Shown piece after piece: positions 1-53,810 of a stretch of DNA of 53,810 bases. How positions within the stretch are numbered: position 1 is the stretch's first letter; each line of letters opens with the position of its first letter. Below the pieces are notes generated by a model. It was not told the DNA's origin. It ran no database searches and saw nothing but the letters and a program-made list of their open reading frames with translations. Made by a program: the position numbers and the translations under genes. The DNA is from a virus (taxonomy: Duplodnaviria; Caudoviricetes), in the IMG/VR virus record IMGVR_UViG_3300044814_000019, positions 1 to 53,810 of that record; one strand, 5' to 3'.

Positions 1-127
1 GCAGTCCTCGCCGGGCCTTTAACTATCAACCCGCAATCTGGAGTAATTCCAGGATTCACGATCAATCAATCTCTATCTGGCTCGTCCCTGCCGACCGGCA
101 ATGCCGCAAATCTGATCTTCATAACAG
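1..127. repeat. terminal direct repeat (assembly overlap), identical to 53684-53810
   Basis: Exact 127-bp identity with the last 127 bp. An ORF reads through the join. 127 is a common assembler k-mer size. Confidence 0.95.
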
Positions 128-1152: not shown

Positions 1153-2030
1153 CGCGGGTAGCAATAGCCGTAATTGGCTTTGTCATTGGCTTCTTCCTTG
1201 TCTTCTCTTCGCTGCAACATGCGCCAGCTCTGCCGCTACCGGGGCATCAGCCGCCGTTCTTCCTTGGGAGCACTGCGCAGACCGGATTTGGGAATCTTTC
1301 TGCAGACGGGACAGCCAATAATAAGGGGACTTCATCGGCGACAGTAGCTATTAATCTGTCCGCCGCGACTGCCGGTGATATTATTGTTGTTGCGACTAAT
1401 TGTTATCGGACTGCTGCGCAAGGCTCTCTTACGTCTGTTTCAACGGTTGCCTCTACTAACCTGCCTTCTGGTGGCTGGCATTTGCGTAAGCAGCTACAGA
1501 TGTCTGGAACCAATTCCTCAGGACTTGGAATCACAGCCTTCAACGATTTGGAGATTTGGTGGACTTATTCTTCTGCCACTCTCAGCGCCGAGTCCATCAC
1601 TGTCACGTATGGCGCCGCCTGCGACTGCCTGCAGTCGTGGGGTTTGGCTGTGAAGGGTTTTATAGGCACGCTATACCAAACCGCTCCTTGGGATGTAAAT
1701 GCATCGTTGCCGGCCGCGCGAACAGATCAAGGAACCAGCGAGCTGCCCAACAACCCATCGATAACCACCACGGCCTCTCATTTCATGCTCATCCAAGCAG
1801 TCGGAACTTATGGTGGGATTTATACGCAAAATCTAACTTCCGATGCTACATGCTGCACTGGTGGTGCTGATACAAATATCGACAACTCGAATACGAGGCA
1901 GGCTAACCTTGCTGTGCAATATGGCCCGGTTCCGCAAACCGGCACGATTGCGTCCGGCTACACGCTGATAATGGGCGGCTCGATGCCATTCACCTACCAC
2001 GCCATCGCTGATGCGCTAACATCGCCCTAG
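1149..2030 (+). CDS. exported/signal-anchored Thr/Ser-rich beta protein, fibre-associated
   Basis: ATGA overlap with the upstream stop. Hydrophobic N-terminus MTRVAIAVIGFVIGFFLVFSSLQHAPA. 5 Cys. Confidence 0.75.
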   Translation: MTRVAIAVIGFVIGFFLVFSSLQHAPALPLPGHQPPFFLGSTAQTGFGNLSADGTANNKGTSSATVAINLSAATAGDIIVVATNCYRTAAQGSLTSVSTVASTNLPSGGWHLRKQLQMSGTNSSGLGITAFNDLEIWWTYSSATLSAESITVTYGAACDCLQSWGLAVKGFIGTLYQTAPWDVNASLPAARTDQGTSELPNNPSITTTASHFMLIQAVGTYGGIYTQNLTSDATCCTGGADTNIDNSNTRQANLAVQYGPVPQTGTIASGYTLIMGGSMPFTYHAIADALTSP

Positions 2031-2442: not shown

Positions 2443-2859
2443 TTGTTTTATAGACCAGGCGGCTCCGCGACGCGGATCAGTAACCAAACCGATACCGTCT
2501 ACGCCGACAGCGTGAACGGTGCGACTGGCTGGCTGCCTGTGAGTAAGGGCAACACTATTTCCGTCAACATAGCCCGCGCTTCGCTAGCGTTCGTCACCGC
2601 TGCGGCCAGCACCATAACGCCGTCCTATGTGGCGCCGGAAGCGCAAGTCGTCATGGAAATGAAGATGTACGGCGGCGACCCGGATTCGTCTGCACGACCA
2701 ATCGACCAATGGCAGAACATCGTTGTTGCTTCGTCGCGGCGTGCCCACCGCGAAGGCTGGGTACGGCTGCGCATCGTCAATATCAACAGCAGCGGAGGGA
2801 CGGGCGTCGTCATGGATATGCAGATCGCCCGTACGGGTGATGTTGGTGCATCTACATGA
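2443..2859 (+). CDS. hypothetical (probable virion) protein
   Basis: Strong RBS GGGGAGGGG before a TTG start. ATGA overlap with the next gene. Confidence 0.7.
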   Translation: MFYRPGGSATRISNQTDTVYADSVNGATGWLPVSKGNTISVNIARASLAFVTAAASTITPSYVAPEAQVVMEMKMYGGDPDSSARPIDQWQNIVVASSRRAHREGWVRLRIVNINSSGGTGVVMDMQIARTGDVGAST

Positions 2860-3485
2860 GCGGCTTTGACCAAGGGACGGCACAAGGCGGCGTCTTCGCC
2901 CAGGCAAAGCAGTTCGGCTCGATCCTGCGGGGTTTCGGGCCGCCCGTGCCGGCTGCTGGTGTCGTCGGCGATCTGTACATAGACACACAGACATGGTTTC
3001 TGTACGAGAAGCGCAATTCGGAAGCCACGGACCCGTGGGGCCACTATCTGTTTGCTGTGCCGGCACAGTACCAGTCAGGTCTGAATTGGTTTAGTTCCTC
3101 GCTTCCGACGAACAATTTTGGCGTAGACGGTGACTATTGCCTGCTTTGGGCTGGTTTCAACAATTACGGACTTCAGCCATCTTTTTGCGGTCCAAATACC
3201 GATGGGTACTGGCCGGAAAGCGGAGACGGACCGGCTTTGCTGCTCGATCCGACGAATGCAGGGTATACGATTCCTGTCGGGCTGACAGACGAAGGCGCGC
3301 TCATTGCGTTCGGCAATTCGTGGCAGCTTGTAGTTGCCGGCCTCGATACCGAATACGTCCTATCCATCCCGGTTCCACAAGTTACGGGTACGTCTTTGAT
3401 CGAGCGCGGGTTGCAGTCGGCACCGGCTGTCGTTCCTCTCGCCATCAATCCGCTGTACGCGGCTGTAGATGAGCACGCCATATGA
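2856..3485 (+). CDS. tail-associated protein, paralogue A (GxPxxxxGVVGDxYID motif)
   Basis: N-terminal about 120 aa highly similar to 3482-3910. The motif resembles the C-terminus of the needle-like protein at 20576. Confidence 0.75.
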   Translation: MSGFDQGTAQGGVFAQAKQFGSILRGFGPPVPAAGVVGDLYIDTQTWFLYEKRNSEATDPWGHYLFAVPAQYQSGLNWFSSSLPTNNFGVDGDYCLLWAGFNNYGLQPSFCGPNTDGYWPESGDGPALLLDPTNAGYTIPVGLTDEGALIAFGNSWQLVVAGLDTEYVLSIPVPQVTGTSLIERGLQSAPAVVPLAINPLYAAVDEHAI

Positions 3486-3910
3486 GCGGGTTCGACAACG
3501 GTACGATTCAACAGGGTGTCTTTGCGCAGGCGAAGCAGTTCGGCCCAGTGCTGCTCGGCACTGGCGAGCCCGTGCCGGCGGCCGGCGTTGTTGGTGACGT
3601 ATACATCGACACGCAAACTCAATTTTTATACGTCAAGCGTTCCAGCGATAGCACAAGCCCGTGGGGTAACTACCTGTTTGCCGTGCCTCCGACCTACCAA
3701 GGCGTGCTTAAGTGGTTCAGTTCGGCGCACCCGACGAACGATCTTGGTGCGAATGGCGACTATTGTCTGCTTTGGGGCGGCTACCCGAATTACGGGTTGC
3801 AGCCGTCCATCCTTGGACCAAAGGCAGCCGGCGCGTGGCCCGCCAACCCAGCTGCAGTCGCGGTCGCACTTAACCCGCTCTACACGGCGGAAAATGAGCA
3901 CGCGGTATGA
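3482..3910 (+). CDS. tail-associated protein, paralogue B
   Basis: MSGFDNGT..GVFAQAKQFG..VVGDVYIDTQT..NYGLQPS..NPLY..EHAV is shared with 2856-3485. Confidence 0.75.
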   Translation: MSGFDNGTIQQGVFAQAKQFGPVLLGTGEPVPAAGVVGDVYIDTQTQFLYVKRSSDSTSPWGNYLFAVPPTYQGVLKWFSSAHPTNDLGANGDYCLLWGGYPNYGLQPSILGPKAAGAWPANPAAVAVALNPLYTAENEHAV

Positions 3911-4518
3911 GCTACAATTCGGCAACGGATTTTATCGGGCTACTGCGGCTTGTCGGCAGTGGTGTGCGCTCGGAACGGATGCCGGGGCTTGATTACGTCG
4001 TCGCCGCGCTGGCCCGTGCAGGCATGTTTGCGCTGTCAGTTGGACAGACCGCGCCAACGGCAAATCAGCCGAGTACGTTTTGGTTCCAGCCTGCCATCCT
4101 ATCATGGTCGGCGGAAGGCACGCTGTACATCTGGAATCCGGTGGCCGGAGCTTATCAGGTCGCAACGCCAGCGCTGTGGCAAGCGTTCCTGTCGTCATCC
4201 GGTTCGGTGTTTCAATCGCTCGCCGCTGCGAACAACACCATAAATCCGGGAGTGTCGCTTGCTGCCATACAGCGTGCCGCGCCCGTTAATACGGCTGTGT
4301 TGTTGCCGACGATCGCAGCGCAGTACCTTACGCAGAAAGACATCGTGTTAGTTGACTTTTCAACAGGAGTCGTCAACCACACCATTGCGTTATCGACGCC
4401 GGATGGTGCTACAATTATGCAGCAAGTGGGGTGGCAGCTCCTATCAACGGCGGCCTACCTGGCGCGCGTACGTCTTCGTCCGTCTCCCGATCTCAACTCT
4501 TGGGTTTTAATACCATGA
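3907..4518 (+). CDS. hypothetical tail/fibre-attachment protein
   Basis: Translationally coupled in the virion gene run. 203 aa. Confidence 0.65.
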   Translation: MSYNSATDFIGLLRLVGSGVRSERMPGLDYVVAALARAGMFALSVGQTAPTANQPSTFWFQPAILSWSAEGTLYIWNPVAGAYQVATPALWQAFLSSSGSVFQSLAAANNTINPGVSLAAIQRAAPVNTAVLLPTIAAQYLTQKDIVLVDFSTGVVNHTIALSTPDGATIMQQVGWQLLSTAAYLARVRLRPSPDLNSWVLIP

Positions 4519-5795
4519 AAATCCGTACCGCCGCAGCTCTCGCGTTCTTTTTGCTTTGCGCTCCCGTTCTTGCTCAGCAGACGCCGAACCACTCCATCCC
4601 GATCGGGCGCGGTGCCGGCATCACTGGCTACGGCGCCGCGGTGCCGAGCACTGCAGGACAGCCGCTCGTCAGCCAGGGCGCAACTACAGACCCGGCTTTC
4701 GGCACGATCGCCAACAGCGGATTTACGGCTGGCCCTGCGAATAGCGTCAAGGGCAGCTTGGACGGCACCAGCGTAGGGGACGAAGCGGTCCCTGCGTGCA
4801 CGGGTGTCAACCAAGCACTGCGCTGGACGGCCGGCGTCGGCTTTAGCTGCGGCACCGTCAGCGTCACGACTGGCTTTGATATGCCGGTCAATCTTGGCCT
4901 GTCCGCTTCTGCGTCCGGCAACGCGCTTACCATCACTCTGACGCAAGCGAGCGGGTCTGCGCCTACCGGCACCAGTCCGGTTTTGGTGCCGTTCCGATCC
5001 ACCACGGCGACGGCTGGCACGGTGACGTGGAGCACGATATCTGCCACTCAATCTATCGTCGTGCCGGCTGGCGCGACTCTCGGCACTTCAAGCGGAAGCG
5101 TTCCTTTCCGCGCCTGGATTTTTGAAGAGTACCACGGCGGTACGCCGGAGCTGGCCGTCGCGACGTGCAGCAGCCCGACAGCGGTTTTTCCATGTGCTGC
5201 TTGGGAAAGTTCGCTACCCACCAGCATAACCATTGGAGGGTCTTCCAACAGCGGCGGCGTGCTGTATGCCACGACTGGCGTCGCTGCTGATGCTGTACGG
5301 ATTATCGGCTATTGCGATTACGCCAGCGGCTTGGGCACGGCGGGTACTTGGGCTAGTTCGTGCACGGCTTTGCAAGTGTTTGGTCCTGGAATCAAGAAGC
5401 CAGGCGATGTGGTGCAGACTGTTGTTGGCACGCGAAACACCCCAACCTCCACGATTTCGGCTACGTTCGTCACGTCCAACATAACGGCGTCTATTTCGCT
5501 GAGTTCGTCAATGAACCTTGTTATGGGTTCTTACTATGCCGACGCTCAACCTACGAGCGGAACAACACAGACGGTTACCCACCAACCGACCCGGGGAAGC
5601 ACGCAAATAGGAATACCTGTTGGCTACACCACTTCAGCGTCCGGCATTCTCGCAAATGTGTACGGATCGTTTCTGGATGCCCCAGGCACCGCCGCTTCGA
5701 CCGCATACGCAGCGTTTTATAAGGTGAACGCTGGCCAAGGTACTGCATTTCCGGCAACGAATGGACAGATCATGCTGCAAGAGATCATGGGATAG
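4515..5795 (+). CDS. signal-peptide-bearing tail-fibre-like protein
   Basis: ATG 4515 overlaps the upstream stop. MKIRTAAALAFFLLCAPVLA|QQ is a Sec-type signal. T/S/G-rich with 6 Cys in the mature part. C-terminal PGDVVQTV...IMLQEIMG is fibre-like. Confidence 0.8.
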   Translation: MKIRTAAALAFFLLCAPVLAQQTPNHSIPIGRGAGITGYGAAVPSTAGQPLVSQGATTDPAFGTIANSGFTAGPANSVKGSLDGTSVGDEAVPACTGVNQALRWTAGVGFSCGTVSVTTGFDMPVNLGLSASASGNALTITLTQASGSAPTGTSPVLVPFRSTTATAGTVTWSTISATQSIVVPAGATLGTSSGSVPFRAWIFEEYHGGTPELAVATCSSPTAVFPCAAWESSLPTSITIGGSSNSGGVLYATTGVAADAVRIIGYCDYASGLGTAGTWASSCTALQVFGPGIKKPGDVVQTVVGTRNTPTSTISATFVTSNITASISLSSSMNLVMGSYYADAQPTSGTTQTVTHQPTRGSTQIGIPVGYTTSASGILANVYGSFLDAPGTAASTAYAAFYKVNAGQGTAFPATNGQIMLQEIMG

Positions 5796-5798
5796 GTC

Positions 5799-6731
5799 AT
5801 GCCGAGCTTTTACGATACCGTAATTCGCAACTCGACTGCTTTCCGCAGCAGCGCAGTTTGCAAGGATCTCGCGCTACTCGAGCCGGGCACGCGGACGGCC
5901 GTGGTCGCGCTGTTGGCGGACGCCAAAGAGCAGGGCATCGACTTGCGGCTGTTGGAGACTTATCGATCGCAGACGCGGCAGAGTGCGCTATTCGTGCAGC
6001 GCGCAACGCAACTCCGCACGGTCGGGTGTCATGGCTACGGCGTTGCGGCAGATTTCGGCGTCTTCGTCAATGGCAAGTACGCCGAAGACAACAAGCCGTA
6101 CGTGTTCCTCCGCGTCATGGCGCGCAAGCATGGTTTGGTTTCAGGTCAAGATTGGGGGCACGCTGCCGAGAGCGCCAGCTTCGTCGATAGCGGCCATGTA
6201 CAGCGCGTGCCGGTGTGGCGGCAAAGCGCACTATTCTCCGGTGCGTGGTACCCACCGGAAGTATATGACCCGTATCAGGATGAGGCCGCACAGCATTCGG
6301 ACGTGGTTGCCAGCTTGGCGGCGCCATCTGCGCCAGTTGCGGCCTCTGTGCCAACGCCTTCGGCCGCCCTGTACCGAAATACGGGTATCGTCGCAACGGT
6401 GTTCGGCGGCGCTGCCGATCATGAAACCAGCGCGTATACCGGCCACCGAATCGACGACACGATCGTAGGTGTCGCGCTGCCGGCGCACATGCCGGGCGTC
6501 AAGGTTCGCGTTCACAGCGGCAGTAAGTCAGTCGTCGCGGACGTTGTTGACATCGGACCGTGGAACACGAATGATCCGTATTGGGTTACTCACGCACGCC
6601 CCCAAGCCGAGAGCGGGACCGACATGCGCGGCCGGCACACAAACAAGGCCGGCATAGATTTGACGCCAGCCGCAGCCCGCGCGCTCGGGATTGACGGCAA
6701 GGGCATCGTGGATTGGGAGCTTGTAGGCTAA
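5799..6731 (+). CDS. endolysin: M15-family peptidase plus C-terminal RlpA-like double-psi beta-barrel
   Basis: YRSQTRQ..CHGYGVAADF..DWG..DSGHVQ (M15 Zn ligands), a Pro/Ala linker, then VVDIGPW..IDLTPAAARALG (DPBB). Confidence 0.8.
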   Translation: MPSFYDTVIRNSTAFRSSAVCKDLALLEPGTRTAVVALLADAKEQGIDLRLLETYRSQTRQSALFVQRATQLRTVGCHGYGVAADFGVFVNGKYAEDNKPYVFLRVMARKHGLVSGQDWGHAAESASFVDSGHVQRVPVWRQSALFSGAWYPPEVYDPYQDEAAQHSDVVASLAAPSAPVAASVPTPSAALYRNTGIVATVFGGAADHETSAYTGHRIDDTIVGVALPAHMPGVKVRVHSGSKSVVADVVDIGPWNTNDPYWVTHARPQAESGTDMRGRHTNKAGIDLTPAAARALGIDGKGIVDWELVG

Positions 6732-6732
6732 G

Positions 6733-7206: not shown

Positions 7207-7219
7207 GGAGGAGACGACC

Positions 7220-7405
7220 ATGGGTGCAAATATATGGTTTTGGTTGATTTACGTCCTCGTCGGCGTATTTGGCGGCTTTGGCATGAATCCGTGGCGTCCG
7301 ACTCCCTATGCGTGGGGCGTATTCGGCAGCTACCTTGTGCTGTTCATTCTCATTGGCATTCTGGGGCTTCACGACTTCGGCAGCCCGATTCAAGGCGGCC
7401 GTTGA
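7220..7405 (+). CDS. small two-TM membrane protein (holin candidate)
   Basis: RBS GAGGAGGAG. Two hydrophobic segments. Confidence 0.7.
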   Translation: MGANIWFWLIYVLVGVFGGFGMNPWRPTPYAWGVFGSYLVLFILIGILGLHDFGSPIQGGR

Positions 7406-7410
7406 CACCC

Positions 7411-7767: not shown

Positions 7768-7845
7768 GTCTGCCGGCACCGAGACACGGCCTCTGTCCGA
7801 GGCCGTGAAGACCGCCGCTCTGGCGGAACGACCCTCCCTCTACTG

Positions 7846-7876
7846 GCCCTGCCTGGAAACGGGCGGGGCTTTTTTT
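7846..7876 (+). terminator. rho-independent terminator
   Basis: GCCCTGCCTG-GAAA-CGGGCGGGGC followed by T7. Confidence 0.85.
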
Positions 7877-7932
7877 ATGTCTGACACTGTGCTATGCAGG
7901 GCCCCTTAATCCATTTGGAAGGGCCAAGCGCT

Positions 7933-44956: not shown

Positions 44957-45062
44957 CTTTTTGCGTTTTAAGCATGTACGGCGCAACGTTGTTGGCGTCG
45001 CGTTTGAGAAATGTAGGGATTTCGAGGCTGTCCCGTACAGGTGACTTCTCCCAGGGCATCAT
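44913..45062 (-). CDS. 49-aa protein carrying an FtsZ C-terminal-peptide-like motif
   Basis: RBS GGAG. DSLEIPTFLKRDAN. Candidate promoter TTGACG-N17-TTATCT upstream. Confidence 0.6.
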   Translation of the reverse strand: MMPWEKSPVRDSLEIPTFLKRDANNVAPYMLKTQKDEKPKQTLPWETLP

Positions 45063-45240: not shown

Positions 45241-45978
45241 ATGTTCAATATCGTAAACGCCGGCCAGCTCGGAGGCGGTTACCGCCATTACTCCGGTTTG
45301 CTGCCACTCACGCCCGGTGACGGCGGACCGCAGGCGCAAGCGTCTGTCCGTGTGTTCCACATCCCCGCAGCCAACGCAGCGGCGATTTTTCGGGGCGATA
45401 TCGTCGTAATGGCGTCGGGCTCAATCGGCACGCCAGGCGCGGCCGACCTGCCTCAAAACATCGGTACGCCGGCAACGCCGTCCGTCGTCATCGGCAACGG
45501 CGGCGGTACGTTGCTCGGCAACGCATCCATGGTTGCGAACATCACTCGTTGGGTGCCTGGTGACACGACCAGCGTCATTGCCGGCGTCGTTGTGGGTTGG
45601 GGGCCGATCACGCTGTACCAAGCGAAAAACGGTTTTCAGTACGCGCCGGCATCCACCGAGTGCTGGGCATTTGTCGAAACCGATCCGGCGCTTGAAATGA
45701 GCTGCACCATGCCGACCGTGCCGGGCACTGCGTTCAATCTCGATCTTCAATCCGGCATCGACTTGAAGGCCAATGCCGGGCAGCAATCGACGCGCTTTGG
45801 CATTTCGGGTGTGTCGCTCGACCCGGCGACCATCGCGACCACGTCCACGCTGCCACTTCGCATCCTCGACAGCGGCCAGCAAATCGGCAACGATCCGACT
45901 GCTGCCGGCTTCGTCGCCCGCGTTCAGTTCAACCTTTCTCGCCACTACAGGGGCGGCGCCGGCTTCGTCGCCGACTAG
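45241..45978 (+). CDS. capsid decoration/cement-like protein
   Basis: AAAIFRGDIVVM..GVVVG..VETDP..TLPLRIL. Strong codon bias similar to the capsid gene. Confidence 0.65.
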   Translation: MFNIVNAGQLGGGYRHYSGLLPLTPGDGGPQAQASVRVFHIPAANAAAIFRGDIVVMASGSIGTPGAADLPQNIGTPATPSVVIGNGGGTLLGNASMVANITRWVPGDTTSVIAGVVVGWGPITLYQAKNGFQYAPASTECWAFVETDPALEMSCTMPTVPGTAFNLDLQSGIDLKANAGQQSTRFGISGVSLDPATIATTSTLPLRILDSGQQIGNDPTAAGFVARVQFNLSRHYRGGAGFVAD

Positions 45979-46014: not shown

Positions 46015-46551
46015 ATGAAACTGTTTTGTAAGTTCAGCGCTGCGTTGCTGGTCGCGTTGATGCCGTTTTCCGCGGCTCTTGCGCAGACCGTCGTACAGGT
46101 TCCGTCGAACATAAACGCCGGAGTCGTTGCGGATCTCGGTAACGGCCCGACCGAAGTTCGCATGCTCCAAGGCAACATGGGGCTTTTCACTTCGCAAGGA
46201 TCTGGCATCGGCAGTGGGTCGACTACCACTATTACTTTGACGGCCAGCGCCGCCGCTAATCCGCCGTGTGTTGGGTGCTTAATATCGGGCACCGGCGTCA
46301 CGTCGGGGACGACCGTGACGGCGTTCAACGGCACCACGACGATTACCACGAATACGTCGCAGACAATTGCCGCCAGCACGGCGTTGTCGTGGGGCAAGGC
46401 GTGTCCGTCAGCGCCACCTTCGGCACCGCTCGCGTTGGTGCAGGCCGCAGTCGGTTCCGATCTCCCGATGTACACGCAAGCGCGCGTATGCGCATACGGC
46501 GGAAACGGTCCCGGCGGTCTGTACACTCAGTACGCCATCGGGGCGCACTAA
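46015..46551 (+). CDS. signal-peptide protein, paralogue of the N-terminal domain of 52835
   Basis: MKLFCKFSAALLVALMPFSAALA|Q. 4 mature Cys. Confidence 0.8.
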   Translation: MKLFCKFSAALLVALMPFSAALAQTVVQVPSNINAGVVADLGNGPTEVRMLQGNMGLFTSQGSGIGSGSTTTITLTASAAANPPCVGCLISGTGVTSGTTVTAFNGTTTITTNTSQTIAASTALSWGKACPSAPPSAPLALVQAAVGSDLPMYTQARVCAYGGNGPGGLYTQYAIGAH

Positions 46552-46628
46552 GTAGCTGGTTTGTTCTGGGCTGCCGTGTTCGCGTTGCCGTGCCTTAAGC
46601 GGGGCAATCAGCAAAAAGGTAAAGCCTG

Positions 46629-46940
46629 ATGGTCGCCAATCCCATAAAGACCATACCGCGCAGCTATCAGTCATGGGTCGCGCTCGCCGCGACGCCTGCG
46701 ACTGATTTTGAGCTGGACGCAGGCAGGTACGGCTTGACCGTGCAAACTGCCGGCTTTACGAGCTATCAGCTCCAGAGGTTGTTGCCCGATGGCGCGACGT
46801 ACGCGCCTGTCATGCCGGTAGCTGCCGCAGCGGGGTACACGGTGCTCGATTTGCCGGCGGGGCGGTACAGCATGGTTGTGGTCGGCGCAACTGCGTTTAC
46901 CGGTCTGATTGAAAAGATCGACACAGGGCGCGCACGATGA
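46629..46940 (+). CDS. small beta-rich virion-like protein
   Basis: 103 aa, no signal peptide, coupled to the next gene. Confidence 0.7.
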   Translation: MVANPIKTIPRSYQSWVALAATPATDFELDAGRYGLTVQTAGFTSYQLQRLLPDGATYAPVMPVAAAAGYTVLDLPAGRYSMVVVGATAFTGLIEKIDTGRAR

Positions 46941-47680
46941 AAAAACTCTTGCTTTTTGTTTTGCTGGCGTTGAGTGCGCTGTCTGCGCCCGCGAACGCGC
47001 AACAAGCGTCGTCAGCTTTCATTGTGTCGTCATGCGGTACACTTCCGGCCGGACTGACGTACGCCGCTGGGCAGTTCGGCATCCTCACGATGGATACGAC
47101 GGGAAAGCTCTGCGATAGCGCCACTGGCGGCGGAGGAGGTGGAGGCGCCATCACAGCTGCATCCGGCTCCTATGCCTCCGGGGCGCTGTCATCCGGTTCC
47201 GTGGTGGACCTCGGTTCGCAAGCCGATGCCGCCTGTGGAACGGCAACGGGTACGTGCTCGCTCATTGCGCTGCAGAAGTTCAATAATACGGCGACTAATT
47301 CGGCAATCCCCGCTGGTTCTGCAATCATCGGGCAAACTGGAATCGACCAAACTACTCCTGGTACCACTAACAAAGTTACCGTAGGTGCTCTGCCGCGTGC
47401 AGCTCGCAACACTCCTGGCTGTACAGTCGGAGCGACATCTGGGACATGCCTAGCTGCCGCTACTGCTATCACATTCCTGCAGATTCAGAACACATCGACG
47501 GCTAATACCGTGGCCTGCAACATAGTTGGCGGTACAGCTGTTCTCAACTCGGCGACCTCCGTACAGCTTGCTGTCGGCCAGTCGGCGTCATGGGGTCCGA
47601 ACACAGGCGGGGTGCCGAGCGGTGCGATCAATTGTATTGCCTCCGGGGCTTCTACACCGCTTTATGTTGAATGGAACTAG
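46937..47680 (+). CDS. signal-peptide, Cys-rich fibre-like protein
   Basis: MKKLLLFVLLALSALSAPANA|QQ. 8 Cys. IPAGSAIIGQTGIDQTTPGTTN repeat motif. Confidence 0.8.
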   Translation: MKKLLLFVLLALSALSAPANAQQASSAFIVSSCGTLPAGLTYAAGQFGILTMDTTGKLCDSATGGGGGGGAITAASGSYASGALSSGSVVDLGSQADAACGTATGTCSLIALQKFNNTATNSAIPAGSAIIGQTGIDQTTPGTTNKVTVGALPRAARNTPGCTVGATSGTCLAAATAITFLQIQNTSTANTVACNIVGGTAVLNSATSVQLAVGQSASWGPNTGGVPSGAINCIASGASTPLYVEWN

Positions 47681-47683
47681 GCC

Positions 47684-49141
47684 ATGAAAACCAAAAATCT
47701 ATTGGTTACCATCGCGTTTGGGGCGTGCTTTACGCTTGCTCTTGCGGTTGGCACGCAGGGACAGATTCAGCCCCCTCCGGGAAGCGGTGGCGGTAGCACA
47801 CCCGGCGGCTCGACGACGCAATGTCAGTACAACAACGCCGGTGCGTTTGGCGGCATCACTGGCTGCACAACTAACGGCACGGCGGTAACGCTGGTTGCTC
47901 CGGTGTTGGGCACGCCAGCAAGCGGAGTTGGGACTAACCTAACGGGCGTGCCGTTGACTACAGGCGTGACCGGAAATCTTCCGGTCACAAATTTGAACTC
48001 TGGCACTGCCGCGTCCTCGACAACATTCTGGCGCGGGGATGCAACTTGGGCAACACCGGCAGGGAGTGGGTCTCCAGGTGGATCAACGACTCAACTTCAA
48101 TATAATAATGCTGGCGCGTTCGCCGGAATTACTGACTGGACAACAGCCGGAACTACCGATCTTACCGGCCTGACCGGCAGCACTCTATCGGTTAATGGTG
48201 CTACAATCGGCACCAATAAATTTGCTGTGCTCGGCAAGACAGGCATAGGCGTTGGCAATCAGTCGGCCGCAAGCGTTTTTGGTACGGCTGGATATAATTT
48301 AGCGCAGCCAACTGGCACTGATACCGACACTGCTTCAACTGGAACGATTGCCCTCACATATGTAAATTCCTGGGGCTCCCGCACACTCGCCGCAAGCAGC
48401 GCCACGACACTGACGACAGTGGCGGGTAACTTTTTTGATGTTCCGGCTGCTGGCACGAATGTCACGTTTACCAATTCAGCACCTTCTGCAATTTTCAACA
48501 GTTCTGGGGTTGCTGGGTCGATAGTCGGATTTTCCGCCCCAGGAAACACAACAGCTTTTCGTTCTTATATGATGATTGCAAATAATACGGGAGTTAAGTT
48601 TCAGCGTTGGACTGATAATTTTGCTGCTCCTGCTGCAAGTGTATGGACTACTGATAATTCTCAGGGTAACGATACGTTTAATGTTTCAAATATCCTTACT
48701 GTTGCTGGAAACGCTATTATCAGCGGCCCTGCTTCCGCGACGTTTCAATTTGGTGCAGCAGCCGCTGCTTCGCCTGTAGCTCAAATTGCCAGAGCGCAGC
48801 CTTCGCGAGCCGGCACTGACACAAACGTCGGCGGTGCTAGTATTACATTTCAATCTGGTAATGGAACTGGAACCGGAACGCTTTCAGCAATTGCTCTGCA
48901 ATCGCCTATTGCTGTCGGCAGCGGCACTGGAGCGCAGACGCAGACTACAGGCCTGACAATTAAAGGCGGCACCGCCGTTCTGTCTGGTTACACAGTTTCA
49001 ACCCTACCCGCATCACCGACTACAGGCGCCATGGCTTATGTTACCGATGCTGTCGCTTGTACTTTTTTAGCAACTGTTACCGGCGGCGGTTCAACATTCT
49101 GCCCGGTTATTTGGACTGGCACAGCTTGGCAGGGCTCGTAA
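47684..49141 (+). CDS. signal-peptide tail-fibre-like protein
   Basis: Signal peptide, two [16 protein letters not shown] repeats, [24 protein letters not shown]-terminal [16 protein letters not shown]. Confidence 0.8.
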
Positions 49142-50218
49142 ATGCTAAAGTGTGTTTTATCGCTGATTATTAGTTCGGCGCTCGCTTGGAGTGCGCATGG
49201 CGTACAACTTCCAATTCCGGGCCTATGGCAGCCGCCAGCAATATCGGCGGATGGCAGCAAGATTTATATCCCGACATTTCCAGATAGCATTCTTGGGTCC
49301 CCGCCAGGATACTACCATTCGTCATATGATACCGGAAATACGTGGGTAAGGCAGGCCGGGTCGGGGAATAGGTTCTGGGTTGTTGGCTGCGCATCATCTG
49401 ATGGAACTATTGTTTATGGCGCTGATCAGAGCAGCAACGGTCTTGGCTCGATTTGGAAATCAATTGATAGCGGCGTTACGTGGGCGCAAACCAATAGTCC
49501 GCTAAAAGCATGGCAGCAGGTTTCCTGTTCAAGCGACGGGACAAAACTTGTTGGCTGCATTGGCTCACAAGGGGCGCAGGACGATTTATTTACATCAATC
49601 GACGGTGGAGTAACTTGGGTAGATCAAACAGGGTCGTTAACGCGTAATTGGTTGTTTTGCGTTATATCTGGCGACGGCGCCAAAATAGCCGCAACCAATT
49701 GGCTAGCGCACGGCCCCAACGGCGACGGTAAGGTTTACATATCAACCAACTGGCAAAGCGGGAGTCCTGTTTGGACAGGCAGCAATGCATCTGCAAATGG
49801 CTCTACGTTTGCTACGCCGAATTATTCTCGCGATGGATCGACGCTCTACGCTGCGTATAACGCTAACGGCAGCACCAGTCACATTTACAAAACGACCGAC
49901 AATGGTGCGAATTGGATTGACGTAAATCCTCCTGGGGGGACGACAAATCAGCGAAATTGGGGGTGGGTTGCGTGCTCAGCCAACGGACAGCGCGTCGTCG
50001 CATCAACCCTAGGACCGCGCACAGCATTTGTCTCAAACGATTTCGGTGCAACATGGACAGCATTCAATCCACAGCCTTACGGTCCGGCTGGATGGCAGGC
50101 ATCCTTCTTGGCTGTCTCCGATAATGGACTTGTCATCGTAAACGCTGGCTACGCCGGATACGTCAGCGTCTCTACGGACGGCGGCGCTCATTTTAACGTT
50201 ACTCAGGCAGTCAACTAA
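49142..50218 (+). CDS. signal-peptide beta-propeller with Asp-box (BNR) repeats
   Basis: Six SxDxGxTW-like boxes (SYDTGNTW, SIDSGVTW, SIDGGVTW, TTDNGANW, SNDFGATW, STDGGAHF). Confidence 0.8.
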   Translation: MLKCVLSLIISSALAWSAHGVQLPIPGLWQPPAISADGSKIYIPTFPDSILGSPPGYYHSSYDTGNTWVRQAGSGNRFWVVGCASSDGTIVYGADQSSNGLGSIWKSIDSGVTWAQTNSPLKAWQQVSCSSDGTKLVGCIGSQGAQDDLFTSIDGGVTWVDQTGSLTRNWLFCVISGDGAKIAATNWLAHGPNGDGKVYISTNWQSGSPVWTGSNASANGSTFATPNYSRDGSTLYAAYNANGSTSHIYKTTDNGANWIDVNPPGGTTNQRNWGWVACSANGQRVVASTLGPRTAFVSNDFGATWTAFNPQPYGPAGWQASFLAVSDNGLVIVNAGYAGYVSVSTDGGAHFNVTQAVN

Positions 50219-50219
50219 C

Positions 50220-52808
50220 ATGAAAAAACGCATCCTCCCCCTTCTCGGCACCCTCCTAATCATCAGCGCCCTATCTGCATCGGCGTTCAGCGGGCCGGTC
50301 GAGGACGCGGCACTACAGTCGGGCTTCAACTCCTGGCGGCAGAACGGGAAGAACTTCCCGCTAGCGCAACTCAAGACGTGGCTCGCCGCAACCGCACCGA
50401 AAGGGCAGGCTGGACCACAGGGCGCCCCCGGTCCTATGGGATTGCAGGGACCGTCTGGGCCACAGGGTCCCGTCGGTTCGCAGGGGCCGGCTGGCGATCA
50501 GGTGGCGTGGAACGTGCATGGCACGGCAACATCGTTTGTGAATAGCACTTCATCCGTTGGAACAAATCTGACCAATTCATTCGGTTCGGCAGCAATGCCG
50601 TTTATGAATGTTTTCAAAACTGCTCAGCAGTGGTTTACGCGGACAGCAAGCATTGGTGATACCAACGAGGAAGCGTATCTCTACGCCAATGTTCTCGATG
50701 CCAATGGATACGCAACCAAGCTAACCGGCAATCCAACCGGGACATTTAACGCGACGTTCAACGGCACGACGACCATGGTGGTGAACTCGCCGACCAGCGG
50801 GGTAACTCCGTGGTTGGGCGGAACTCTAAACGTCGCCGGATCGCCAACTGTTACTGCTTGCCCGGTCGCAGGCTGTGGTGGGACGGGCAGTTATACGATT
50901 TCCGCCACTGTTTCCTCCGCCACGACCTCGGTCATTGAGAGCCCGACATTTACCCAACTTTCGATGGGGGTGCTAGGAGAGGTATCTACATTCGCGAGTC
51001 CATTTTATCCTGGCGGGAACGGCTCGTGGCTGTTCAAGTGGGATGGAAACGATTGTGCTGGATCGACCTGTTTTGAGTACCATAACGATGCAACTCTTGC
51101 GAGCCATTCATGCTCAGGTGGAACTTGCACCGACGTTCTGAATGTATCGCCAAGCTCAGGTGGCATTCGCGTATTTGAAACAGGCACCGGAGTAACGGCG
51201 CCGACCAACATTCGTCTTGTGCAGACGGCGCAGTACAACGCATTGAGCAGCGCGCAAAAAACCTCATTCGACAGCGGTGGAATATTTTTCAACCCCGACA
51301 GCACGAAGTACGACAAGCAGTTTCGCGGCTTCCGCATGATGGGGTGGAACCGCACGATAACTAGTATGGTGACTTCGTGGTCACAGAGATCGACTGTTGG
51401 GTGGGTATTCTGGCAGGATGGGATAAAATATAATTTCGACGTGCCGATAGAGGTGCAGCTTTCTTACTGCAACCAGCTTCACGGAGAGTGCTGGCTAAAC
51501 TCCCCCTGTATCGCTGATCAAGCGTACTACACCAGCGAAGCAACTTTCGTTCTGGCCAACCTTAACAGCGATCTTCCGGTTGTTCACGAAGCCTGCAATG
51601 AACAGTGGAACGGCGGTTCATTTCCTTCAGCGCTGCTTGCTGCGCAAAACACCAATGGTGCCGCTCTTTTTACCACTTGTACTGCTCTAAGCACGTTTCA
51701 GTGCAGGCTTGATTACAATGTCTATCAGGCCGTGACTTCATCGCTGATCTGGAAAAGCATTTGGACGGGCGGAAATGCAAGTCGCCTCACCATGGTTATG
51801 GGCGGTCAGTTTGGAAATCCGGGGGGCATAGATTTACCAAAATGCCAAATGCTTGCTACAGCGGACGGCGGTTCGTCGTACTGGACCGGACAGGCTTGCA
51901 GTCACGTCGATGCTGATGCGACTGCACCTTATTTCCCGGTTGGGTCGTTCGCCGGCATGTCGCCGCTGGCATGGACTGCCGATTCGGATGGTGGCTTGGC
52001 CCGTGTCTACACGCAACTTACATCCGGCACTTTGATCCCGAGCTCCAATGTCGCCGGTAACTGTGGCAATGGTGCGGGCATTACTTGCGGCGGCCCTGTT
52101 AACTACACTCTGACAACGGGGCTTAGCTTGAGCGCTGCCCCGGCAAATGGCTTCTGCATCGCCGCGACGTTCAATCAAATCGGTAGCACAAATCCTCACA
52201 TTGCGATAGATTCTCTCGGGTCTCTCCCGGTTATGGGGATGGACGGAGTTGTTGTGAACGCCATCCAAGCGCAGCAGTATGCATTGTGCTACACAACGGC
52301 AACTGCATCTGGCTCCGTAACTCCGCAATGGCAATTGAACGCCCCGCGATTTCCTTGTGGCACCAGTGAAATGGATTGCCAGGGAGTTTTGACTGCGTTG
52401 GCAAACACAACGGTTGCACAAGTATTCGGCATTAAGCTAATTGGTTACGAAGGCGGACAGACTTATAATGACCCGTGCGCCAATAGCGGCAATACGGCGT
52501 ATTGTGGAAACGCAGGCCATCCGGACGTTTTGCAAGAAACACTGCAAACGAACTTCAATCTTTCAACTCAAATGGGGCAGGCATACTCAGCATGGCTTGA
52601 TGAGCAAAAAGCTAACGGCATGGTTGATCTTTACCAGCTATCGGATAGCGGTCCTTGGTTGACAGACGGTTCCTTGTTGGGGCAAACTAACTACTTCCCG
52701 TTCAATCCAGGGACTTATTCGAGTAGCACACCAACCGCACGACAAAACGCCATTTACACCTGGATTCTAGCCAACCCATGTTGGTGGGCTGGCTGTACGA
52801 TAAATTAG
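50220..52808 (+). CDS. signal-peptide protein: collagen stalk plus clan GH-A-like glycoside hydrolase domain
   Basis: 11 Gly-X-Y triplets, PFMNVFK, VPIE..WLN.P, NEQWN (acid/base-like), YEGGQ (nucleophile-like), many Cys. Confidence 0.7.
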   Translation: MKKRILPLLGTLLIISALSASAFSGPVEDAALQSGFNSWRQNGKNFPLAQLKTWLAATAPKGQAGPQGAPGPMGLQGPSGPQGPVGSQGPAGDQVAWNVHGTATSFVNSTSSVGTNLTNSFGSAAMPFMNVFKTAQQWFTRTASIGDTNEEAYLYANVLDANGYATKLTGNPTGTFNATFNGTTTMVVNSPTSGVTPWLGGTLNVAGSPTVTACPVAGCGGTGSYTISATVSSATTSVIESPTFTQLSMGVLGEVSTFASPFYPGGNGSWLFKWDGNDCAGSTCFEYHNDATLASHSCSGGTCTDVLNVSPSSGGIRVFETGTGVTAPTNIRLVQTAQYNALSSAQKTSFDSGGIFFNPDSTKYDKQFRGFRMMGWNRTITSMVTSWSQRSTVGWVFWQDGIKYNFDVPIEVQLSYCNQLHGECWLNSPCIADQAYYTSEATFVLANLNSDLPVVHEACNEQWNGGSFPSALLAAQNTNGAALFTTCTALSTFQCRLDYNVYQAVTSSLIWKSIWTGGNASRLTMVMGGQFGNPGGIDLPKCQMLATADGGSSYWTGQACSHVDADATAPYFPVGSFAGMSPLAWTADSDGGLARVYTQLTSGTLIPSSNVAGNCGNGAGITCGGPVNYTLTTGLSLSAAPANGFCIAATFNQIGSTNPHIAIDSLGSLPVMGMDGVVVNAIQAQQYALCYTTATASGSVTPQWQLNAPRFPCGTSEMDCQGVLTALANTTVAQVFGIKLIGYEGGQTYNDPCANSGNTAYCGNAGHPDVLQETLQTNFNLSTQMGQAYSAWLDEQKANGMVDLYQLSDSGPWLTDGSLLGQTNYFPFNPGTYSSSTPTARQNAIYTWILANPCWWAGCTIN

Positions 52809-52834
52809 ATTGACGAGCGAGGCCGAGTATCCAG

Positions 52835-53810
52835 ATGAAAAAGCTCTTAGTCGCTCTATCAGTGCTATGCTGTACAGCGGTATCCGCGCTGGCGCAGAGC
52901 GCCGTCACGTTACCGATTGCTGCGAACGCCGTCGCCGACATCGGCAACGGCCCCATAAAAGTCCGCATGGTCGCGGGCAACGCGTCAATTTTCACGTCAC
53001 AAGGATCTGGCACTGGCAGCACGTCCGGCGCGTCTACAGCTTTGACGCTAACTGCGACGCCTGCAACACCACCGATCGTTGGCGGCCTGATTTCCGGCGT
53101 GGGTATCACATCAGGAACGACGGTCATCGCGTACAACGGTACGACGGGCATCACTTTGTCGGCCGCGATGACCGTAGCCGGCGGTACGGCGGTTGCGTGG
53201 GGTGCCGCGTGTCCGTCGACGCCGCCCAGCAACGTAATTCAAGCGTCACCCCAAGCCGACTACTACATTATGTACACGCAAGCCCGCGTGTGCGCAGTCT
53301 CGCCGGGCGGTCCGGTAAATACGCTTTTGATTGATCCGATTTTTTACGACCAAGCGACGCAGGGCGGTGGCGCCGGCCTAGTCGGATCAGTGTCCAATTC
53401 CGATGGAACGTTGACAATTACGCCAACAACCGGAGTGGTTATAGCATCTATTGCTTTGGGGCACCCAAACACATGGACTTCCACGCAGACATTTTCCACT
53501 TCCCCACTTGTTCCGACAGCGGCGCCTGGAACCAATAACACTCAGGCTGCTTCGACCGCATTTGTGCAAGCAGCGACGGCAACTTTTCTCAATAGTTTAT
53601 GCACTACGGCTGGCGCGTTTCCTGTCTATAACACAGTCAGCGCTGCCTGGGTTTGCTCTACAGTCGGCGGCGCAGGTTCGCAAGCAGTCCTCGCCGGGCC
53701 TTTAACTATCAACCCGCAATCTGGAGTAATTCCAGGATTCACGATCAATCAATCTCTATCTGGCTCGTCCCTGCCGACCGGCAATGCCGCAAATCTGATC
53801 TTCATAACAG
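52835..53810 (+). CDS. 5' part of a signal-peptide tail-fibre-like protein (continues at base 128)
   Basis: MKKLLVALSVLCCTAVSALA|Q. Contains the SPLVPTAAPGTNNTQAASTAFVQAA tail-fibre repeat. Missed by the ORF track because it runs off the end. Confidence 0.8.
   Translation, partial: MKKLLVALSVLCCTAVSALAQSAVTLPIAANAVADIGNGPIKVRMVAGNASIFTSQGSGTGSTSGASTALTLTATPATPPIVGGLISGVGITSGTTVIAYNGTTGITLSAAMTVAGGTAVAWGAACPSTPPSNVIQASPQADYYIMYTQARVCAVSPGGPVNTLLIDPIFYDQATQGGGAGLVGSVSNSDGTLTITPTTGVVIASIALGHPNTWTSTQTFSTSPLVPTAAPGTNNTQAASTAFVQAATATFLNSLCTTAGAFPVYNTVSAAWVCSTVGGAGSQAVLAGPLTINPQSGVIPGFTINQSLSGSSLPTGNAANLIFIT
53684..53810. repeat. terminal direct repeat (copy of 1-127)
   Basis: Exact identity with 1-127. 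Confidence 0.95.

Follow-up and report, generated by a model that had tools for sequence, protein, structure and literature searches.

Predicted signal peptides and paired cysteines on fibre-like and receptor-binding proteins of an uncultured podovirus-like phage

In the textbook account, tailed phages are put together entirely within the cytoplasm. Podoviruses complete their particles through adaptor systems, the tailspike of P22 being added last and phages of the G7C and SP6 type employing branched adaptors. All examples of this kind known to us lack signal peptides and are assembled in the cytoplasm. Virion proteins that carry signal peptides and mature outside the cytoplasm are familiar from filamentous phages (pIII, pVIII) and from membrane-containing phages. 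The virions of these phages are assembled at or in a membrane and possess neither a terminase-packaged head nor a tail, whereas the genome described here has genes for a large terminase and for a protein resembling a tail hub. Tailed phages also encode signal-bearing proteins that are not part of the virion, such as Llp of T5, Cor, Lom/Bor and secreted endolysins.

The closest architecture, by analogy, is that of the MAT (mosaic adhesive trimer) fibres of the predatory bacterium Bdellovibrio bacteriovorus. According to their published description, these proteins are encoded by chromosomal genes, consist of a signal peptide, a beta-rich domain that is conserved and spans ~130 residues, and a trimeric fibre that may or may not carry a Peptidase_S74 chaperone, and are displayed on the predator's own cell surface (PMC10769870). 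WceF from Pantoea stewartii is an exported trimer with the beta-helix fold of tailspikes, bears a Tat signal and acts on exopolysaccharide; it differs from the proteins considered below as a housekeeping enzyme that a bacterium encodes in an EPS cluster and that has neither a conserved docking N-domain nor a phage context (PMC7949094). In the seroconversion module described for phage VarioGold, an O-antigen-ligase gene lies beside the gene for a signal-peptide protein (PMC9658991).

The window analyzed here is the whole of the IMG/VR record IMGVR_UViG_3300044814_000019 (53,810 nucleotides). Bases 1-127 are identical to the last 127 and the genome consists of this contig alone, and it is therefore taken to be circular. 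Judged by its sequence, it is a circular 53.7-kb contig of an uncultured short-tailed, podovirus-like phage. Its earlier assignment to the tailed phages is borne out by two PHROG matches: a large terminase is recognizable (phrog_2, 1.1e-17), and the hub-like protein aligns over 482 aa with phrog_578 ('head closure Hc3', 7.6e-40). Among cultured phages, no large terminase subunit (TerL) exceeds 30.4% identity to that of this contig, and a host search in 185,579 species genomes yielded no TerL relative above 37% identity. INPHARED contained no match to g47684 and one weak partial match to P0088, a longer relative from the g4515 family. No tRNA genes were found in the window. The genes of interest and the lysis genes that follow them are compiled in Table 1.

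Table 1. Genes and other features of the late module. Signal peptides and domains are predictions; cysteines are those of the mature parts.
Feature	Position	Strand	Description	Cys
g45241	45241..45978	+	signal-less, 245 aa, conserved; always opens the module	
g46015	46015..46551	+	signal peptide and stand-alone ~150-aa beta-rich N-domain	4
g46629	46629..46940	+	signal-less, 103 aa; overlaps the start of exported g46937	0
g46937	46937..47680	+	signal, ~40-residue conserved mature N-terminus, then variable Cys-rich part	8
g47684	47684..49141	+	signal peptide and fibre repeats (QYNNAGAF, FWRGDATW)	4
g49142	49142..50218	+	signal peptide and BNR/Sortilin-Vps10-type beta-propeller	5
g50220	50220..52808	+	signal, collagen-like stretch, domain of ~750 aa (24 Cys in close pairs)	24
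g52835, first part	52835..53810	+	signal peptide, N-domain, start of fibre with PTAAPGTNNTQAASTAFV motif	8 (whole protein)
g52835, remainder	1..1152	+	continues across the circular join; whole protein 666 aa	
g1149	1149..2030	+	293 aa; begins with a long hydrophobic segment, either signal peptide or signal-anchor	5
g2443, g2856, g3482	2443..3910	+	all three signal-less and conserved; g2856 is a paralogue of g3482	
g3907	3907..4518	+	proposed adaptor; N-part 1-98, C-part 99-203	0
g4515	4515..5795	+	signal, ~50-residue conserved mature N-terminus, three Cys pairs, TNF/C1q-like head 298-426	6
endolysin	5799..6731	+	closes the module; no signal peptide or SAR segment	
holin candidate	7220..7405	+	61-aa ORF with two hydrophobic segments, called from sequence	
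terminator-like hairpin	7845..7870	+	11 pairs, 8 of them G-C, and a T-run	

Nine of the 64 open reading frames in the window begin with a signal-peptide-like sequence according to a crude heuristic of our own, used in place of SignalP, which asks for a net positive n-region, for a stretch of 10 residues that begins within the first 14 and averages at least 2.0 on the Kyte-Doolittle scale, and for small residues at -3/-1. Eight of the nine lie inside the block of 13 genes that extends from 46015 to 5795 across the join (hypergeometric P = 2.4e-6). They are the same eight genes, at the same positions, for which the initial annotation had claimed signal-like N-termini, including g52835 with its continuation to 1152. 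By the same heuristic, all eight show the layout of substrates of Sec and signal peptidase I, for which a basic n-region, an h-region of ~7-15 residues and small residues in front of the cleavage site are typical. A Gln behind the cleavage-like site had been claimed for most of them and is indeed the predicted +1 residue in five (g46015, g46937, g47684, g52835 and g4515). The hydrophobic segment of g1149 is of atypical length, longer and more hydrophobic than the others, and could be a signal-anchor instead of a cleaved signal. The ninth signal-peptide-like N-terminus belongs to the frame 10764-11492 on the minus strand, outside the block. Its product has no Pfam match and may be an outer-membrane barrel; because this reading draws on a C-terminal motif alone, the host is only tentatively regarded as diderm.

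The initial annotation had proposed to survey homologues for joint conservation of signal peptides and cysteine pairs, and such a survey found signals kept in three families and cysteines co-varying in pairs. Signal-peptide-like N-termini, again as judged by the heuristic, are present in 107 of 120 homologues of g4515, in 72 of the 82 members of the N-domain family to which g46015 and g52835 belong and, among the matches listed, in 102 of 119 homologues of g46937; those not flagged are mostly fragments or have extended starts. Among the homologues, an N-domain or a g4515-type N-terminus without a signal was essentially not seen. The commonest residue reaches a frequency of 0.54 in the h-region versus 0.74-0.82 in the mature domain (51 long N-domain proteins). 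The hydrophobic core thus drifts in sequence with its hydrophobicity kept, and strong conservation sets in at the predicted +1 Gln; A-x-A followed by Gln is kept across hundreds of sequences of the g4515 and N-domain families. In the relative L091, an 805-aa protein in the same slot carries a twin-arginine-type signal, KRRDFL (RRxFL type) followed by a mildly hydrophobic Ala-rich stretch, the sole convincing case across the scanned loci and a parallel to the Tat signal of WceF. Such a conservation profile points to a cleavable targeting signal, and export is well supported on these comparative grounds.

The cysteines tell a similar story. They account for 1.92% of the residues in the mature parts versus 0.43% in nine signal-less structural-like proteins, and their number is even in six of the eight products; the five even counts given previously (4, 8, 4, 8 and 6) proved correct on recount. 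In the g4515 family (53 sequences), Cys95, 112, 218 and 227 are invariant and Cys267 and 283 are conserved in at least 90%. In the N-domain, Cys85 and Cys88 are both present in 24 sequences, both absent from 53 and never found singly, and Cys130 and Cys159 occur together in 75 of 77. The cysteines behave as disulfide pairs would, and folding with disulfides is well supported by this comparison.

On the evidence of folds, modules and repeats, the products of the block are of fibre, tailspike or receptor-binding nature. The C-terminus of g4515 is modeled as a TNF/C1q-like jelly roll that resembles the lectin 9ib6 (Z 15.1, rmsd 2.2, 122 residues aligned) and the cyanophage fibre domains 9k09 and 8ke9 (Z 10.3-10.5). 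Long N-domain proteins in relatives carry pectate-lyase-like, Peptidase_S74 and GDSL (SGNH) modules, with any Pfam match at all in 4 of 54, and the TNF-like fold together with the S74 modules suggests a trimeric state. The fibre motifs quoted by the initial annotation are present in g47684 and g52835. The repeats of g47684 (2301 fibre-like homologues) are found mostly on classic signal-less fibres; among the matches listed, 17 of 119 homologues, about one in seven, are signal-peptide-like and the others start as classic fibres, so the trait may extend beyond the clade studied here. The C-terminal 93 residues of g52835 match phrog_9017 (tail fiber, 6.4e-07), and six relatives with differing C-termini share its N-terminal stretch of 172-200 residues at 75-87% identity. 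A conserved N-terminus with variable C-termini is common to all three families (N-domain, g46937 and g4515), the mature N-terminus of g46937 displaying the motif S-[SA]-C-G-T. Carbohydrate-related similarities are found as well. The propeller of g49142 matches PF15902 (1.1e-08, 34.8 bits, cut-off 33) and weakly the NCBIfam glycosylhydrolase NF045728 (38 bits versus a cut-off of 175); an NCBIfam scan of 22 proteins gave sub-threshold matches only. For g50220, the Collagen match stays below its cut-off (24.2 versus 27.2 bits), PHROG tail-fibre matches are confined to the collagen part, and its Atlas model is similar (TM about 0.6) to bacterial proteins to which automatic annotation has given the name 'cellulose-binding protein'.

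The N-domain is N-terminal in all 82 representatives of its family, and the AF2 model of g46015 reaches a pLDDT of 91. A fold search with this domain found no clear structural relative, the best VIA hit (Z 8.1, cupin-like, 74 residues aligned) being at noise level. Residues 60-127 resemble small beta domains of phage proteins (for example 8eci_2, Z 7.9, 32% identity over 66 residues), and the comparison with BFVD returned low TM scores only. PDB sequence searches gave nothing useful for the profiles A3 and A4 or for g2856, g50220 and g49142. Neighbourhood statistics for the N-domain stem from few genomes, the single-protein search having given two loci. The contigs are phage-sized for both families, the longest measuring 66,035 bases in the g4515 family and 52.6 kb in the N-domain family. 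The architecture of the MAT fibres recurs here: directly behind the signal peptide lie a beta-rich domain, likewise conserved, and then a fibre, a predicted trimer, and Peptidase_S74 occurs in some MATs and in relatives of the N-domain proteins (PMC10769870). In addition, the g4515 head resembles the C-terminal domain of Bd2734 (8okw, Z 11.4). Unlike the MAT genes, the genes of the block reside in a phage late module and on phage-sized contigs only, and the likeness is one of architecture.

The initial annotation had suggested that the interleaved signal-less genes encode docking partners on the virion side. For the pair g3907/g4515 this suggestion has gained support. The C-part of g3907 and the g4515-type N-terminus co-occur, with the C-part encoded directly upstream, in 30 loci without exception; the 30 include identical or near-identical contigs and represent roughly 22 distinct sequences. 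The C-part never occurs alone, the N-part only, without the g4515 type, is present in six loci, and in L017, L039 and L029 the N-part stands at the front of proteins whose C-termini match PHROG families of tail fibre or tail collar type. The pair could be a cassette that is inherited as a unit. It resembles adaptor systems of the P22, G7C and SP6 type. Common to both are a conserved N-terminal docking part, exchanged modules for receptor binding or depolymerase activity at the C-terminus, and a site adjoining the lysis genes; g3907 would likewise be an adaptor that binds the tail by its N-terminus and the next protein by its C-terminus. The hub-like protein of this contig is the one that matches phrog_578. 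The difference lies in the distal partner, which here has a conserved Sec signal and conserved cysteine pairs. The idea that g3907 and g4515 are the halves of a split fibre was rejected: one-piece signal-less fibres of relatives lack the mature g4515 N-terminal segment, and only the first ~98 residues are common to them.

A g46629 homologue lies directly upstream of a g46937-type gene in L068-L073, L077 and L090. Homologues of g2443, g2856 and g3482 occur in 14, 26 and 26 of 67 loci, respectively, and have no family or PDB match. The opening gene, g45241, is shared by relatives with and without exported fibres (11 loci, 68-84% identity); it matches neither Pfam nor PHROG and offers a weak Atlas lead to phage cement proteins (score 0.84). 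For g1149, the loci contain a single weak relative (L029, 29% identity).

From these comparisons we infer a course of export, cleavage, disulfide formation and docking, and its timing, that would run as follows. The block would supply exchangeable receptor-binding proteins, comprising fibres, tailspike-like enzymes and lectin heads, which differ from the rest of the virion in their cleavable Sec signals. Late in infection they would cross the inner membrane, signal peptidase I would cut after A-x-A, leaving an N-terminal Gln in most of them, and folding and trimerization would take place in the oxidizing periplasm with formation of paired disulfides. There the proteins would wait during the assembly of heads and tails in the cytoplasm. 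The endolysin, having no signal, would require the holin to open the inner membrane. Upon this opening the compartments would mix and the exported proteins could dock via their conserved mature N-termini onto cytoplasmic adaptors already present on the particle. The clearest adaptor pair would be g3907, with its virion-anchor N-part and partner-specific C-part, and g4515. That receptor-binding proteins are Sec-exported, oxidatively folded and docked on the particle after holin action is our best reading, held tentatively and with slightly less than even confidence. Somewhat more doubtful is the broader proposal that a whole clade of tailed phages completes its virions outside the cytoplasm, with receptor-binding proteins sent through Sec, or Tat in one relative, and joined when the holin opens the membrane via g3907-type adaptors. 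In the literature searched, which lay outside the subscription journals, we found no tailed phage whose tail fibres are said to pass through Sec or Tat, and the prior for export with docking on the virion is low for this reason. The initial annotation had envisaged export, folding by Dsb proteins and either attachment to virions at lysis or decoration of the infected cell. Conserved signals, cysteine pairs and the Tat-type relative speak for export and disulfide folding; attachment at lysis, Dsb-dependent folding and decoration of the cell stand as proposals.

It is quite possible, if on balance doubtful, that the exported proteins never join the virion and work within or upon the infected cell's envelope, or free after lysis. 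By cleaving or binding glycans they might hide or destroy receptor polysaccharide, which would lead to superinfection exclusion and keep progeny from sticking to debris; they might loosen biofilm matrix or be displayed on the surface in the manner of the MAT proteins. The conserved N-domains would in that case anchor them to a component of the envelope instead of the virion, and all evidence for export fits this reading as well. Precedents are the MAT fibres, with the same architecture on a cell surface (PMC10769870), and the Tat-exported, trimeric WceF with its tailspike fold, which modifies exopolysaccharide (PMC7949094). The carbohydrate-type domains of the block and its relatives (BNR propeller, 'cellulose-binding'-like fold of g50220, pectate lyase) point in the same direction. 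In L077 and L090, a Wzy_C-like membrane protein (below the Pfam cut-off in both) is encoded inside the block, which fits an envelope-remodeling module better. This arrangement of an O-antigen-ligase-like gene adjoining signal-peptide genes recalls VarioGold, for which a ligase gene adjoining the gene for a signal-peptide protein is likewise described (PMC9658991). With VarioGold, Llp, Cor and Lom/Bor the phage described here would share the use of host Sec by a tailed phage for envelope-acting proteins. Those proteins differ, however, in being small, neither fibre- nor tailspike-like and devoid of docking N-termini with swapped receptor-binding modules, and none of them is known to be coupled to an adaptor of virion fibres. 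For g46015, the stand-alone N-domain gene, a function as virion fibre is not obvious; it counts against docking on the virion and is easier to place in the envelope, and the signal-less conserved g2443, g2856 and g3482 could then be the true virion fibres. On the other hand, action in the envelope does not predict the strict coupling between the C-part of g3907, a virion-fibre anchor protein, and the g4515 N-terminus. The restriction of the N-domain and g4515 families to phage-sized contigs leaves no host family for them to plug into, distal modules are swapped between the block and classic virion fibres, and the block is flanked by a virion internal protein and by the lysis genes, the usual fibre site of podoviruses. 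Three separate conserved N-terminal docking modules also exceed the needs of free enzymes.

Much less probable is that the hydrophobic N-termini are real and the proteins are nevertheless not exported during infection, fibre assembly taking its usual cytoplasmic course, for instance because the phage blocks Sec, because a phage chaperone captures the precursors or because the segment, a structural or membrane-tethering element, is removed or buried. Every characterized tailed phage takes this route according to the textbooks, small signal-less proteins that could be chaperones are encoded directly upstream (g46629; the MAGID type in L074 and L091), and the segment of g1149 is more anchor-like than a cleaved signal. 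Against it stands the drift of the h-region with conservation from +1 onwards, which is that of a removed targeting signal and not of a packed helix, as do the A-x-A before Gln kept in hundreds of sequences and the Tat-type signal at the same slot in L091. Co-varying cysteine pairs would be purposeless in a reducing cytoplasm, and N-domains or g4515 N-termini free of signals are essentially not seen. That starts are miscalled or the hydrophobicity is fortuitous and the real proteins begin downstream is hardly credible: the signal test is a heuristic and g4515 and g1149 have alternative upstream starts, but the other six of the eight genes lack an in-frame upstream start and abut or overlap their neighbours, the flagged genes are clustered far beyond chance, and the coding of signals is kept in hundreds of independent metagenomic homologues.

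If the broader proposal, a clade that completes its virions outside the cytoplasm, is true, it would add a new step to the morphogenesis of Caudoviricetes and would make infectivity dependent on the Sec, signal-peptidase and Dsb machinery of the host. Export as such would allow oxidative folding and periplasmic chaperones to shape host-range proteins of phages, would let the timing of lysis double as an assembly step and would turn host Sec and Dsb into determinants of infection and possible routes to resistance. Should the proteins never reach the virion, phage-borne, MAT-like exported fibres and depolymerases that remodel the surface of the infected cell would still be unusual. Annotation pipelines that count a signal peptide against a virion protein would misfile such genes, and disulfide-stabilized receptor-binding modules are attractive for engineering.

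The endolysin that follows the block stays just under the Pfam cut-off for VanY (24.2 versus 25 bits) and under that for DPBB_1 (21.1 versus 28.8 bits), and it matches PHROG endolysin families at 2.8e-06 and 8.2e-06. That it lacks a signal agrees with a membrane-opening holin; the holin candidate downstream has no family match. Terminator-like hairpins are in total not above those in shuffled sequences, and a single late transcription unit ending at the hairpin behind the holin candidate is for this reason weakly supported. This hairpin is the first strong one on the plus strand after 40061.

All eight genes for which the initial annotation had proposed export signals are present (g46015, g46937, g47684, g49142, g50220, g52835, g1149 and g4515, each named by its start coordinate), and each bears a signal-like N-terminus by our own heuristic, that is a positive n-region, a 10-residue Kyte-Doolittle mean of at least 2.0 starting within 14 residues and small residues at -3/-1. 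Gene g52835 runs over the circular join to position 1152 and encodes a 666-aa protein. Nine of the 64 ORFs in the window are flagged, and eight of these nine are the genes listed, all within a block of 13 ORFs (hypergeometric P = 2.4e-6 for the clustering). An in-frame upstream start is absent for six of the eight; these six touch or overlap their neighbours, and a downstream start is the sole way to omit the hydrophobic segment. In five of the eight, Gln is predicted at +1. Cysteine counts of the mature parts in block order are 4, 8, 4, 5, 24, 8, 5 and 6, with many residues in close pairs; the even counts 4, 8, 4, 8 and 6 noticed earlier in five mature parts are all among them. Cysteines make up 1.92% of these parts; in nine structural-like proteins of this genome that lack a signal the figure is 0.43%.

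Joint conservation of signals and cysteine pairs in homologues, proposed earlier as a check, could be followed in the three families large enough for a comparative test: signals are kept in all three, cysteine pairs in the g4515 and the N-domain families. A signal-like start is found in 107 of 120 g4515 homologues among the matches listed (272 in total), those not flagged being mostly fragments or extended starts. The cleavage junction of this family, A-x-A followed by Q-(W)-Q-T-P-N-H-S, is nearly invariant, Cys 95, 112, 218 and 227 are invariant and Cys 267 and 283 nearly so. Searching 1.84 billion representatives with the N-domain, the beta-rich domain of about 150 aa that follows the signal in g52835 and stands alone in g46015, retrieved 82 proteins (175 to 1102 aa), 72 of which are flagged; the domain occupies positions ~3-165 in nearly all full-length matches. 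Structural comparison assigns it to no known fold. Its Cys85/Cys88 pair is complete in 24 proteins, wholly absent in 53 and never reduced to a single residue, and both Cys130 and Cys159 occur in 75 of 77. For g46937, 102 of 119 homologues among the matches listed are flagged. Across 51 long N-domain proteins conservation is lowest in the h-region (0.54 versus 0.74-0.82 in the mature domain) and strong from +1, the pattern of a removed targeting signal, unlike that of a packed structural helix. In one relative the corresponding slot encodes a protein of 805 aa (L091:12634-15051; L091 and L039 are the same contig) with a Tat-type signal, KRRDFL and then an Ala-rich stretch, the only instance in our scan of loci; it matches no Pfam family. 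Conserved signals, h-region drift, cysteine pairing and the Tat-type variant together argue for real export of the block proteins as the reading to beat.

Both families checked occur on phage-size contigs only, the longest having 66,035 bases (g4515) and 52.6 kb (N-domain). A second g4515-related group (P0079-P0120, 640-690 aa, contigs of 57-66 kb) carries a conserved signal peculiar to it and, in the mature part, a Gln/Gly-rich N-terminus; the trait may be shared by further phage groups.

All three exported families combine a conserved N-terminus with a downstream part that is swapped. Six relatives whose C-termini are unrelated match the first 172-200 residues of g52835 at 75-87% identity, the first ~60 residues are conserved in g46937, and g4515-type proteins have the signal and ~50 mature residues in common while ranging from 413 to 920 aa. 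Pfam matches in four of 54 long N-domain proteins are to pectate-lyase-like (two, one with Peptidase_S74) and GDSL/SGNH domains (two), all typical tailspike modules. Repeats of g47684 recur in 2301 proteins, with a signal-like start in 17 of 119 among the matches listed and ordinary fibre starts in the others; exported forms and classic cytoplasmic fibres therefore draw on the same circulating distal modules. Further products of the block include a BNR/Sortilin-type propeller (g49142, Pfam) and a collagen stretch with a large Cys-rich domain (g50220), whose Atlas model resembles bacterial proteins automatically named cellulose-binding. The AF2 model of g4515 (pLDDT 81.7) ends in a TNF/C1q-like jelly roll that resembles the Photorhabdus lectin 9ib6 (Z 15.1, rmsd 2.2, 122 aligned), Chlamydia Pgp3 (Z 13.8), Bdellovibrio Bd2734 (Z 11.4) and fibre domains of cyanophages A4 and A-1(L) (Z 10.3-10.5); its top BFVD matches are uncharacterised Caudovirales proteins. 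When loci are centred on the homologue of g45241, the signal-less 245-aa protein opening the module, consecutive signal-bearing genes fill the slot in eight of 11. The other three, the most distant (68-71% identity), hold signal-less fibres with a different conserved N-terminus of MAGID type (see table). Matches to BNR, Sortilin, cadherin and pectate-lyase-like families occur in signal-bearing genes of this slot in relatives.

Positions of features in the window and in related loci (L numbers)
Feature	Position	Strand	Remarks
MAGID-type N-terminus	L074:11340-11798; L075, L076, L078; L091:8474-8575		Heads signal-less fibres in three relatives without exported genes; small protein directly before an exported gene in L074 and L091
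Polytopic membrane protein	L090:205-1266; L077:11317-12393; L071:11425-12390		Sub-threshold Wzy_C (O-antigen ligase) match; just upstream of g46629 homologue
157-aa protein after endolysin	6733-7206	+	Coiled-coil-like body, single C-terminal transmembrane segment
Holin candidate, 61 aa	7220-7405		Two-helix
Ninth signal-like ORF, 242 aa	10764-11492	-	C-terminal alternating hydrophobic stretch and terminal Trp
HNH endonuclease	44432-44986	-	PF01844, 3.9e-12; antisense within late structural run, between internal virion protein and g45241

Functionally, the modular podovirus tailspike-plus-adaptor system offers the nearest parallel. The proposed adaptor g3907 is signal-less, lacks cysteine, overlaps the start of g4515 and has two parts. 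Its N-part (1-98) heads longer signal-less proteins, often as several paralogues per genome, and in L017, L039 and L029 their remainder matches PHROG tail-fibre/tail-collar families with E-values down to 7e-17; because it heads proteins of this kind, the N-part would most simply be a virion anchor. When the C-part (99-203) and the g4515-type N-terminus were located by tblastn over 78 loci, they occurred together in 30, with no more than 66 nt between the ends of their alignments; these loci represent ~22 independent sequences, since L068/L069 are the contigs of L002/L003 and further pairs are near-identical. The C-part alone was found in none of the 78; in two loci the g4515 type is accompanied by a C-part so diverged that tblastn misses it and blastp recovers it, and six loci have the N-part only, without the g4515 type. 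Inheritance of the cassette as a unit could produce the same pattern. Recombination has replaced both flanks of the unit formed by C-part, signal and ~50 residues and has kept the unit itself intact, as is predicted for an interacting joint. Of the signal-less genes initially suggested as docking partners, g3907 thus gains in standing through its coupled C-part and fibre-type N-part; docking itself we infer. The layout of g46629/g46937 is similar, with a small signal-less protein directly before the exported gene, and in L074 and L091 a small MAGID-type protein takes this place.

The single most likely course, which we put forward tentatively, is that Sec-exported, oxidatively folded fibres dock on finished particles at holin opening. 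Late transcription would yield one long plus-strand unit, for which weak evidence comes from a terminator-like hairpin at 7845-7870, the sole strong one beyond 40061 on that strand. The fibre proteins would then be exported by Sec, cleaved before Gln, and folded oxidatively and trimerised in the periplasm, until the holin opens the inner membrane and they could reach the adaptors of the finished particle. The endolysin is without a signal of its own, and no lipoprotein-type outer spanin was seen in 6700-8300. Post-lysis docking, if shown, would add a new step to the assembly of tailed phages. Full-text literature searches, which covered few subscription journals, turned up no tailed phage with Sec- or Tat-exported fibres; receptor-binding proteins as such are known, and new here would be those of a phage with predicted export signals and disulfides.

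Somewhat less probable, and a serious contender, is that export is real and the proteins never enter the virion. From inside the host they would cleave, cover or bind surface polysaccharide, or they would decorate the cell. The stand-alone N-domain gene g46015 speaks for this, as do Wzy_C-like membrane proteins within the block of L077 (25.2 bits) and L090 (27.6 bits), both below the cut-off of 31.7. Such a gene hints at surface-polysaccharide remodelling; in L071 and L077, the loci with that side visible, the stand-alone N-domain gene precedes it, and the window itself has no Wzy_C-like gene of this kind. Three published cases point the same way: WceF, a tailspike-fold protein, is Tat-exported (PMC7949094), an O-antigen-ligase gene adjoins a signal-peptide gene in phage VarioGold (PMC9658991), and the MAT fibres of Bdellovibrio, displayed on the predator surface, consist of a signal peptide, a beta-rich domain that is conserved and ~130 aa long, and a trimeric fibre, in some cases with S74 (PMC10769870). 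By this description of their architecture, the MAT family comes closest to the block proteins. Docking on the virion and a role outside it are compatible, not exclusive. Disuse of the signals in infected cells is improbable, and an artefact is scarcely credible.

The window has a G+C content of 57.4% and an exact terminal repeat of 127 bases (1-127 = 53684-53810), the usual mark of circular assembly and not a biological repeat; because of these identical ends and a genome record consisting of a single contig it is taken as a circular assembly of ~53.7 kb. Among its products are a large terminase (TerL; phrog_2, 1.1e-17), a 482-aa protein matching phrog_578 'head closure Hc3' along its whole length (7.6e-40), and a family-A-type DNA polymerase, helicase, primase, gp2.5-like SSB and exonuclease. 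A 1360-aa protein without a Pfam domain, whose residues 598-731 match two unnamed PHROG families (2.1e-10 and 3e-08), is read as a putative internal virion protein, and the genome as that of a probable podovirus-like tailed phage. The HNH endonuclease gene looks like a homing-type insertion. TerL identity does not exceed 30.4% among 427 matching phage records or 37% among 185,579 species genomes, so that neither set holds a close relative, cultured in the former case; a sizeable uncultured clade is present in IMG/VR, where 41 loci have a TerL of 71-98% identity and many of them come from 50-55 kb contigs.

Short Gram-negative-style signals and the C-terminus of the minus-strand 242-aa protein, which resembles the C-terminal signal of outer-membrane beta-barrels, suggest a diderm host. 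This protein has no match in Pfam or NCBIfam, and relatives, too, have a signal-like ORF on the minus strand downstream of TerL. The only named bacterial relative among the matches listed is P0416, a signal-bearing 168-aa protein that is related to the C-terminal domain of g46937 and lies on a 285-kb contig; the sources name it hypothetical or Ig-like and assign it to Rhizobium freirei, a faint host lead.
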